Source: Bacteroidales bacterium (GTDB lineage Bacteria > Bacteroidota > Bacteroidia > Bacteroidales > Muribaculaceae). Taken from it: a stretch of DNA of 64,000 nt. The stretch lies in contig SFEA01000005.1 of the NCBI GenBank assembly GCA_004557385.1, forward strand, positions 27,465 to 91,464. The letters run 5' to 3'. Of the stretch, positions 22,341 to 22,667 are shown piece by piece (position 1 is the stretch's first letter; every line of letters starts with the position of its first letter). The position numbers and the translations under genes are program-made. The notes under the pieces were generated by a model that searched no databases, was not told the DNA's origin, and saw nothing but the letters and a program-made list of their open reading frames with translations.

Positions 22341-22667
22341 ATGAAAGAAAAACAAGAAGTACAACGCGAAGAACTTATCACACTTGAAGAAGAATTGGAG
22401 CTTATTAAGCAGATTCGACAATCGCCAGACGACTGCGAGGCTGCAAAGCAAAAACTATTATTTGCAAATCAAAGATTTGTACGTGTGATAGCAGAGAGAT
22501 ATGCCACCGACGAGCAGCAGACGAAAATACTTGTTGCTGAGGGCAATAAGGGGCTACTCTACGCCGTTGAAAAATATGATGAGACAAAAGGGTATAAATT
22601 CATAAGTTATGCTCTGTACTGGATTAAAGAATCAATTAAACAATATATCATGAATAACTCTAATTGA
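22341..22667 (+). CDS. Stand-alone sigma-70 region 1.2-2.4 protein; regions 3 and 4 are absent
   Basis: [12 protein letters not shown] ... [20 protein letters not shown] ... [40 protein letters not shown] aligns with primary-sigma regions 1.2, 2.1, 2.2, 2.3 and 2.4. For comparison, Bacteroidetes RpoD has [23 protein letters not shown]. A stop follows immediately after region 2.4. The first ATG is at 22341 (the ORF-track start at 22266 is TTG). Confidence 0.75.
   Translation: [108 protein letters not shown]

Follow-up and report, generated by a model that had tools for sequence, protein, structure and literature searches.

The stretch of DNA described here raises the question of why a gene for one domain of a sigma factor should stand directly in front of nuclease genes. 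The window, by which we mean the whole stretch of 64,000 nucleotides from a Bacteroidales bacterium of the Muribaculaceae (GenBank assembly GCA_004557385.1, contig SFEA01000005.1, positions 27,465–91,464), contains at positions 22341–22667 of the forward strand a gene that starts with ATG and encodes 108 residues. Its product, the sigma-2 protein, is derived from the primary sigma factor RpoD and contains the C-terminal part of region 1.2 followed by regions 2.1–2.4. As a tentative answer, we propose that it is a physically coupled control or sensor subunit, a mimic of sigma-A that would link nuclease activity to the state of the host RNA polymerase. The genes around it probably form a nuclease-based conflict system, most likely directed against phages or mobile elements. 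Almost all of the comparative evidence comes from metagenomic contigs with automatic gene calls, whose loci and proteins are designated below by L and P numbers, respectively.

Domain content and fold of the sigma-2 protein

The sigma-2 protein matches the Pfam Sigma70_r2 profile with 38.8 bits, well above the cut-off of 24 (E-value 7.8e-10), and its residues 42–106 cover profile positions 4–68 of 71; the profile check proposed for Sigma70_r2 was thus positive. The NCBIfam models of RpoD, RpoS and RpoH align to residues 5–107 with E-values of 1e-18 to 1e-21. The protein is not an RpoD equivalog in NCBIfam, its best score being 77 bits compared to cut-offs of 323–572 or more; the scores are far under these full-length cut-offs because only domain 2 is present. 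In a phmmer search against the PDB, the protein matches domain 2 of SigA, RpoD and RpoS with E-values down to 3e-17, and its residues 3–104 align to residues 343–444 of Escherichia coli sigma-70 without any gap. Residue i of the window protein corresponds to sigma-70 residue i+340; therefore, the protein stops at sigma-70 position 448, which is the end of region 2.4 and lies just before region 3.0.

The AlphaFold2 model of the protein has a pLDDT (predicted local distance difference test score) of 87.6. The top 50 Foldseek matches of the model are essentially all sigma chains, and the top hits are all sigma domain 2, with a probability of 1.00. The template-modelling (TM) score of the top hits is 0.6–0.7 (0.65–0.70 in the top-ranked short alignments of 90–97 columns) and the root-mean-square deviation is 2.7–2.9 Å. 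One of the matches, 5h6x, is an RpoS fragment described as 'partial region 1.2 and region 2'. Profile, PDB register and fold all agree with the original prediction, made from the letters alone, of a stand-alone sigma-70 domain 2 that ends at the boundary of regions 2.4 and 3.0. The prediction had assigned regions 1.2–2.4 to the protein; regions 2.1–2.4 are indeed there, but region 1.2 is present in part only, as its N-terminal (first) helix is missing and Pfam Sigma70_r1_2 was undetected in the window protein.

The remainder of a sigma factor was searched for with two hidden Markov models, one of regions 3–4 and one of the N-terminal half, which were both built from 76 Bacteroidales RpoD proteins and scanned against the six-frame translations of the whole window. 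The sole match of the N-terminal-half model is the sigma-2 open reading frame (ORF) itself, with an E-value of 1.3e-30. The regions 3–4 model gave no match in the six frames; its best E-value, 0.085 at position 30182, is unrelated. Pfam likewise detected no Sigma70_r3 or Sigma70_r4 in the sigma-2 protein or in the downstream proteins. The expected lack of regions 3 and 4 is therefore confirmed, and the frameshifted remnant of them that was looked for does not exist in the window. With no sigma-4, which serves the β-flap and the −35 element, nor region 3 of groups 1–3, encoded, the sigma-2 protein is not a complete sigma-70 initiation factor of groups 1–4; it belongs to the sigma-70 family through domain 2 alone.

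Region 2.2 of sigma-70 is the main interface with the β′ clamp helices of RNA polymerase, and regions 2.3–2.4 read and melt the −10 element. We compared 33 nuclease-linked sigma-2 sequences with the 76 RpoD proteins residue by residue. The region 2.2 motif E67-G68-N69-x-G71-L72 (sigma-70 E407-G408-N409-x-G411-L412) and, in region 2.3, K86, F87, Y90, A91 and W94 (sigma-70 K426, F427, Y430, A431 and W434) are invariant or nearly so in the nuclease-linked clade and are conserved in RpoD; the hydrophobic core is also retained. The aromatic residues of −10 melting, which had been noticed beforehand, are present as Y85, F87, Y90, Y93 and W94, corresponding to sigma-70 Y425, F427, Y430, W433 and W434, respectively. 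The clade varies, or has switched residues, at several positions that RpoD keeps invariant, namely sigma-70 D403, K414, K418, R423, W433, R436, Q437 and position 440. This pattern may fit selection for the fold and for protein binding more than selection for canonical promoter reading; it is only suggestive, because alternative sigma factors vary at those sites too.

Relatives, nuclease partners and fusions

Orthologous short ORFs that encode sigma-2 only, whose existence the original prediction had made its touchstone, were found in 23 protein clusters; almost all of them are 101–122 residues in length, and the identities range from 57% to 95%. Between sigma-2 loci with a synonymous divergence (dS) of about 1 or more, the ratio of nonsynonymous to synonymous divergence (dN/dS) is 0.14–0.25; between the window and locus L009, it is 0.36, a value that rests on very few changes and is uninformative. 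Among cellular proteins, the nearest relatives are housekeeping RpoD proteins from Bacteroidales (45–50% identity over residues 5–107). Among the GTDB species-representative genomes, the best 80 of about 600 relatives are all housekeeping RpoD (42–51% identity; 46–50% for those checked); therefore, the sigma-2 family is rare and is known only from metagenomes and metagenome-assembled genomes. The sequence of the window locus itself occurs in pig-gut metagenomes.

In a crude neighbour-joining tree, the nuclease-linked sigma-2 sequences form a clade apart from RpoD. The sigma-2-only gene of L014 nests with RpoD, to which it is 63–71% identical, and L230/L237 and P0170 branch separately; therefore, truncated RpoD copies arose more than once. 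As judged from these comparisons, the sigma-2 proteins are a rare, RpoD-derived clade of Bacteroidales under purifying selection. A decayed rpoD paralogue is ruled out by the missing region 3/4 remnant, the conserved orthologues and the purifying selection. A phage origin was also rejected: IMG/VR holds no close relative, its best matches (51% identity) being ordinary sigma factors, and PHROGs gives a generic sigma family only. The giant protein P0286 (7852 residues) contains complete sigma factors and is not relevant as a relative.

In every sampled locus of the family, the sigma-2 gene is followed by a gene for a PD-(D/E)xK nuclease, which is mostly a member or weak member of the Pfam family REase-ARP (PF22558); every sampled locus except the window keeps a REase-ARP or REase-ARP-like nuclease. 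Profile searches and a search for REase-ARP homologues revealed a series of split and fused forms. In P0170 (399 residues), sigma-2 and REase-ARP form one polypeptide; in P0271 (520 residues), the polypeptide also includes a preceding N-domain of about 115 residues. The N-domain and sigma-2 are joined in P0265, P0274, P0280 and P0284 (222–242 residues) and in L185, where the REase-ARP gene starts 9 nt downstream; in L001–L004, N-domain, sigma-2 and REase-ARP are encoded by three separate adjacent genes. The 115-residue ORF of L001 is 57% identical to the N-domain of L185. Assignment of the N-domain to a SLOG/YspA-like family was rejected, the Pfam hits being sub-threshold (E-values 0.13–0.18) and a matter of resemblance. 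A nuclease linkage, as had been claimed from the window, accordingly stands for the family and includes covalent fusion; it is qualified by the deletion of the consistent partner, REase-ARP, from the window and by the fact that the two genes which follow sigma-2 there, encoding a 309-residue protein and a metallo-β-lactamase (MBL) nuclease, also occur without it.

That deletion could be located precisely. Compared by blastn to the window, two 96%-identical contigs (L009 and L011) have an extra 1186 bp at window positions 25462–25469, after the MBL gene; in L009 (11131–12316), this segment contains the gene of a 319-residue REase-ARP nuclease, which scores 94.4 bits to PF22558, and a 60-residue ORF. 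Both deletion junctions were read; they share a short GGGA microhomology, and the deletion in the window is clean. The forms with and without REase-ARP both occur in pig-gut RNA-derived contigs, and the window lost its REase-ARP gene recently. L005 is the reciprocal variant: in its positions 8320–8369, compared to 8325–11068 of L009, the 309-residue gene and most of the MBL gene are gone, and its sigma-2 ORF reads into the last 14 MBL codons, giving the tail TEVVPRIYLFPYRKL. Sigma-2 is retained in both reciprocal deletions. The system of the window is a reduced variant, without N-domain and REase-ARP, in which sigma-2 may act only with the 309-residue/MBL pair or may be an orphan.

Among 64 metagenomic REase-ARP loci with enough upstream sequence, six have sigma-2 directly upstream; these include all five closest relatives of the L009 REase-ARP, on the same strand, and the distant REase-ARP members are without it. 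No plasmid match was found for the REase-ARP protein. REase-ARP sits in larger cassettes beside WYL regulators, MBL nucleases, metallophosphoesterases and an AAA+ protein, among others; in related loci, there are also WYL regulators, ArdA, integrases, transposases and toxin genes. L250 contains the 309-residue-type PD-(D/E)xK gene, MBL, REase-ARP and a phosphoesterase with no sigma gene. In L237 and L251, the PD-(D/E)xK/MBL/REase-ARP cassette lies behind a 190-residue mini-sigma protein composed of sigma-2 and sigma-4. The notion that the 309-residue/MBL pair was inserted between sigma-2 and REase-ARP was ruled out, as the cassette recurs without sigma in L250 and with the mini-sigma in L237. 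In L099, a 299-residue protein with an uncharacterised N-terminal region, sigma-2 and sigma-4, and no region 3, precedes REase-ARP, and the element also carries ArdA.

Some further arrangements were seen in these loci. L237 (91–6400), like L251, has an apparent eight-gene operon, as far as same-strand adjacency tells; its order is the 190-residue mini-sigma, a 333-residue PD-(D/E)xK-like protein, a 109-residue protein, MBL, REase-ARP, a 203-residue and a 312-residue protein and a metallophosphoesterase, so the layout is that of the window's relatives under a different sigma-derived head. L014 (5927–11878) encodes a WYL protein, a 308-residue PD-(D/E)xK protein, a 427-residue MBL protein, the 122-residue sigma-2-only gene mentioned above and a 299-residue fragment of DNA polymerase III alpha, that is, two fragments of host genes side by side. 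In L211 (4694–6355), one ORF joins an RpoD-like region 1.2–3 to an AAA+ ATPase; it is found on a single contig and is possibly an assembly artefact.

The N-terminal position of REase-ARP is occupied by other modules as well. P0257 (370 residues) carries an N-terminal fragment matching GyrA/ParC residues ∼370–450, a coiled coil whose Pfam score is below the cut-off; this region presumably overlaps the GyrA14 fragment bound by CcdB. P0256 and P0222 are REase-ARP nucleases with HEAT repeats at the N-terminal position. On the sequences seen, such N-terminal swaps would represent the pattern of a variable sensor and a constant effector.

The island and its upstream element

The sigma-2 gene heads a low-GC island (25–45% GC, compared to ∼55% in the flanks), which is bordered by a major facilitator superfamily (MFS) transporter gene on one side and a DUF5606/DUF6852 gene on the other. 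The sigma-2 ORF ends with TGA at 22665–22667, followed by AGT and then by the ATG of the next ORF at 22671, so the three-nucleotide spacing read in the original prediction is correct. Sigma-2 shares its frame with the next ORF in the window (22665–22673) and in L009, L185 (with its 9-nt gap) and L001, the two being separated by the stop and one to three codons; read-through of the stop codon would imitate the natural sigma-2–nuclease fusions. The two ORFs are out of frame in L005, L007 and L099, and the shared frame may be chance.

The next gene (22671–23600, forward strand) encodes the 309-residue protein, which consists of an N-terminal α/β and helical region and a putative C-terminal core of the PD-(D/E)xK type (D193...E202-x-K204). 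The protein has no match in Pfam (E-value ≤1), NCBIfam or PHROGs; its family has >250 members, 13 of which show no or almost no variation at D193, E202 and K204. The matches of its AlphaFold2 model (pLDDT 80; predicted TM score 0.83) in Foldseek are weak (E-value ≥0.008, TM score ≤0.28), and almost all are PD-(D/E)xK nucleases. The protein is not a diverged REase-ARP, as it has no PF22558 match and the hhalign probability is 1.7%.

The third gene (23608–25458, forward strand) encodes a 616-residue MBL/beta-CASP nuclease, which is RNase J-like in residues ∼2–385 and has a C-terminal extension of ∼190 residues. Its membership of the beta-CASP MBL proteins is supported by Pfam Lactamase_B_2 (48.4 bits, cut-off 27) and RMMBL (24.6 bits, cut-off 21.6), and it matches RNase J chains in the PDB with E-values down to 5e-11; it is not an RNase J equivalog, its NCBIfam score being 48.7 compared to a cut-off of 400. 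The C-terminal extension (∼24900–25458) also occurs as a stand-alone ORF of 198–230 residues beside REase-ARP genes in six metagenomic loci (for example, L190 2327–3016) and is therefore a separate module. PADLOC-DB 2.0.0 identified no catalogued defence system at the locus; its hits are limited to MzaA region 2 and a marginal PDC-S11 hit of the 309-residue protein (E-value 0.014). The metatranscriptome (RNA-derived) contigs cover the nuclease genes at low depth and the sigma-2 gene barely.

Upstream of sigma-2, at 22203–22269 of the forward strand, lies a conserved promoter-like element with three blocks, TTAACAAAA (22203–22211), ATCGTATAATAT (22235–22246) and TTTTTTTTGA (22260–22269). The blocks are invariant in an alignment of six diverged loci with unrelated flanks, and the pattern occurs once per family locus, always just 5′ of the sigma-2 gene. 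The element includes a perfect TATAAT, which is not the usual promoter motif of Bacteroidetes; the exact Bacteroidetes −7 consensus TAnnTTTG is absent from the forward strand upstream of the sigma-2 gene. The element probably acts as a promoter or operator. The 16-nt string ATCGTATAATATATAT has a second exact copy at 56064–56079, inside the start of the minus-strand ORF 54915–56090, the product of which resembles arginine/agmatine deiminase; as it lies within a coding sequence on the other strand, this copy was set aside as probably due to chance.

Between the element and the sigma-2 gene, a vestige of the N-domain is found at 22273–22305 of the forward strand. Now a short upstream ORF, it runs from ATG through nine codons to a stop (MKIAILEHLK) and matches the N-domain start in L185 and L001 (MKIAILGTLK...). 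Window positions 22059–22289 align to 2571–2800 of L185, and 22320–22657 align to 3150–3487; therefore, ∼350 nt of N-domain coding sequence have been lost from the window. The same N-domain-less junction is found in L005, L007 and L009, and the N-domain-less form is therefore old and maintained. These results bear on the suggestion that the short protein was designed and not truncated: its C-terminal end at region 2.4 is indeed a property of the whole clade, but the stand-alone form seen in the window came from an internal deletion. Translation of the upstream ORF may persist and affect how the sigma-2 gene is expressed.

Two other features were noted in the window. A 135-residue minus-strand ORF (21476–21883), which partly coincides with the end of the MFS transporter gene, is also conserved among the close relatives; Pfam, NCBIfam, PADLOC and PHROGs gave no family for it. 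Four tRNA genes are clustered at 31975–33784 of the forward strand.

Possible functions and comparison with known systems

In our proposal of a coupled sensor subunit, sigma-2 would be a copied domain 2 of the Bacteroidales primary sigma that kept the docking surface for the β′ clamp helices and the aromatic pocket and lost everything required for a complete initiation factor. It would work in physical association with the REase-ARP PD-(D/E)xK nuclease or, in the window, possibly with the 309-residue and MBL proteins. The mimic might be bound by a phage factor aimed at sigma-A, or by core polymerase freed from sigma-A; in both cases, the nuclease would be set free or switched on. The proposal draws on the identity and fold of the domain, its origin from RpoD, the purifying selection, the linkage to nucleases and the natural fusions, and also on the retention of sigma-2 in both reciprocal deletions, the recurrence of sigma-derived heads, the other modules at the N-terminus of REase-ARP and the low-GC context. 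It predicts that sigma-2 binds RNA polymerase or phage factors of the anti-sigma kind, that it gates the nuclease and that the system serves in defence; several points weigh against it. Contact of sigma-2 with the nuclease or with RNA polymerase is a prediction from sequence; the two nuclease fusion proteins each rest on metagenomic gene calls with few supporting sequences; and, as PADLOC gave no match, the defence role is drawn from context alone. The mimic shares only 45–50% identity with RpoD, and the clade is relaxed at D403 and at a number of basic DNA-contact residues, all of them invariant in RpoD, which on sequence grounds would weaken a strict decoy reading. The gene after sigma-2 varies within one family between the 309-residue type, a strong REase-ARP and a weak REase-ARP of 331–347 residues, as expected for a generic regulator. 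The 309-residue/MBL pair occurs elsewhere without any sigma-2, WYL regulators hold the same head position in related cassettes, and the versions with both sigma-2 and sigma-4 look like workable minimal sigma factors.

Most of the latter points belong to the main rival, which we regard as serious and only a little less likely than our proposal: a truncated dedicated sigma factor or regulator that binds core polymerase and/or the −10-like upstream element and switches the nuclease operon on or off, like the WYL (BrxR/CapW-type) regulators or autoregulated extracytoplasmic function (ECF) sigma factors, with the optional N-domain as ligand sensor. The 5′ head position of sigma-2, which in related PD-(D/E)xK/MBL/REase-ARP cassettes is held by WYL proteins, agrees with such a role, as do the invariant TATAAT-containing element at every family locus, the resemblance of the N-domain–sigma fusions to one-component regulators and the conservation of sigma-2 in front of nucleases of varying type; the relatives that resemble minimal sigma factors, with sigma-2 and sigma-4 and no region 3, are L099, P0275, L237 and L251. 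Precedents exist in T4 gp55 with gp33 and in MtvS1/YgfB, which regulates CRISPR loci (10.1101/2024.09.12.612765). However, a pure transcription factor would not usually be joined covalently to a nuclease, as sigma-2 is in two independent architectures; sigma-4, region 3.0 and the region 3.2 finger are all missing from the window protein, and no partner encoded nearby supplies them. The residues that read −12 or contact the promoter are relaxed or changed (sigma-70 K414, K418, R436, Q437 and position 440), and co-occurrence of WYL and sigma-2 in L230 and L188 shows that sigma-2 is no simple replacement of WYL.

Sigma-2 might instead be a targeting tether, holding the nuclease to RNA polymerase (core or elongating) or to the melted non-template strand of −10-like DNA and steering its cleavage to opened or transcribed DNA. 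The core-binding motif and the aromatic pocket residues are retained, the fusions place both activities in one polypeptide, and isolated sigma-2 domains are folded, with −10 single-stranded DNA as their ligand, in solved structures such as 3ugo, one of the PDB matches. Such a tether would have no evident means of self/non-self discrimination, though, and host sigma-A would outcompete a domain without sigma-3 and sigma-4; with the DNA-contact residues relaxed, and with a separate, putative nuclease interface required for the stand-alone forms, we consider it improbable. We give as little credence, or slightly less, to a functionless leftover, in which the window gene, having lost both ancestral partners (N-domain and REase-ARP), persists only owing to the recent date of the deletion and to its carrying the promoter of the 309-residue/MBL genes. 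The REase-ARP deletion is a population-level polymorphism at 96% identity, the 309-residue/MBL pair manages without sigma-2 elsewhere, the dN/dS to L009 decides nothing and the RNA-derived contigs barely cover the gene. Yet the gene retains an intact ORF, purifying selection acts across L005, L007 and L009 on the N-domain-less form, which is old, the four-gene arrangement persisted over dS >1, and a leftover says nothing about the function of the family.

A wider version of the sensor proposal, which we think unlikely though well short of negligible, is that the REase-ARP nucleases of gut Bacteroidales use 'integrated baits', namely sigma-A domain 2, the GyrA/ParC C-gate coiled coil and perhaps pieces of DNA polymerase III alpha, wired to a DNase. 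The bait would be bound by phage proteins that attack RNA polymerase, gyrase or the replisome, and this binding would trigger the nuclease; the sigma-2 protein of the window would be one such bait, and the arrangement would be a bacterial counterpart of the integrated decoys of plant nucleotide-binding leucine-rich-repeat (NLR) receptors. As a bait or docking subunit, sigma-2 would give a bacterial immune nuclease a new way of sensing infection, by monitoring attack on the transcription machinery through a copy of the host sigma domain, and it would offer a handle for finding the RNA-polymerase-targeting proteins of gut Bacteroidales phages. If it is a regulator, it would be a cellular domain-2-only sigma, so far mainly known from phage T4, in control of a multi-nuclease operon. 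Either way, the split and fused series of N-domain, sigma-2 and nuclease defines a compact, testable system.

The nearest comparison is with domain 2 of Bacteroidales RpoD/SigA itself. Like it, the sigma-2 protein is homologous over its full length (45–50% identity), has the same helical fold, and carries the EGNxGL motif and the region 2.3 aromatics. Unlike RpoD, it lacks regions 3 and 4 and the first helix of region 1.2, several of the residues that never vary in RpoD are changed or relaxed in it, and its gene lies in a low-GC nuclease island, whereas rpoD is a housekeeping gene.

The gp55 protein of phage T4, which acts with gp33 and gp45, and the two-subunit SigO–RsoA of Bacillus subtilis are small proteins that provide core polymerase with sigma domain-2-like functions only. 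They work with a partner in place of sigma-4 or with a co-activator, and they are transcription factors of a phage or of a stress regulon. They are likened here by function and not by sequence; at the window, no sigma-4-bearing partner is encoded and the partners are nucleases. The sigma-2 protein is thus not half of a split sigma factor with a sigma-4 partner, as no region 4 is found in the window and its neighbours are nucleases, although a non-homologous co-activator is possible. The gp55/gp33 pair has also been summarised elsewhere (10.1101/2024.09.12.612765). According to the same source, MtvS1/YgfB are small binders of the β′ coiled coil, proposed to occupy the sigma-2 site of RNA polymerase, that regulate CRISPR-Cas loci; MtvS1 is placed in a YecA/YgfB-like family and not in the sigma-70 family (10.1101/2024.09.12.612765). 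Like the sigma-2 protein, they are small and linked to immunity genes; different from it, they control many genes at the level of transcription and are neither partnered with nor fused to a nuclease.

Among defence proteins, MzaA (NCBIfam NF041931, PADLOC PDLC02203) also contains a sigma-70-family domain, and the window protein hits its region 2 with 67.5 bits in NCBIfam (cut-off 800) and 49.5 bits in PADLOC. However, MzaA is ∼700 residues in length (726 model positions in NCBIfam, 683 in PADLOC), has extra domains and belongs to the five-gene MZA system; PADLOC found no other Mza component among the window neighbours, so the locus is not an MZA system, and a literature search on MzaA returned unrelated string matches only. 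The CapK/CapS paper was discarded as a precedent, since it concerns anti-sigma-like kinases and not sigma. WYL regulators of the BrxR/CapW type occupy the same 5′ position before the same PD-(D/E)xK/MBL/REase-ARP cassettes as sigma-2, but they have an unrelated fold (helix–turn–helix (HTH)-WYL-WCX), are never fused to a nuclease in the loci seen and can co-occur with sigma-2. Of the features of a type II toxin–antitoxin-like pair, with a small upstream neutraliser and a nuclease toxin, those that fit are limited to the order of the genes and to the loss of the nuclease gene, which is tolerated.

Integrated decoys of plant NLR receptors couple a copied target domain of the host to an immune effector, and in sigma/anti-sigma pairs, the sigma-2 surface serves for regulated protein binding; both are analogies only. 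REase-ARP, adjacent or fused, is the cognate partner of the sigma-2 clade in relatives; however, it is deleted from the window, the 309-residue nuclease is not a member, and most REase-ARP loci have no sigma-2. Our literature search found no paper on REase-ARP/PF22558 nor the meaning of 'ARP', and searches on truncated sigma factors, sigma decoys, restriction-fold conflict systems and integrated decoys found none on an association of sigma-2 with REase-ARP. The REase-ARP family is already curated in Pfam, and its association with sigma-2 appears to be new, no description having been found. Compared to the systems above, the locus is best classed as a conflict system of nucleases whose unusual head module comes from the sigma factor of the host.

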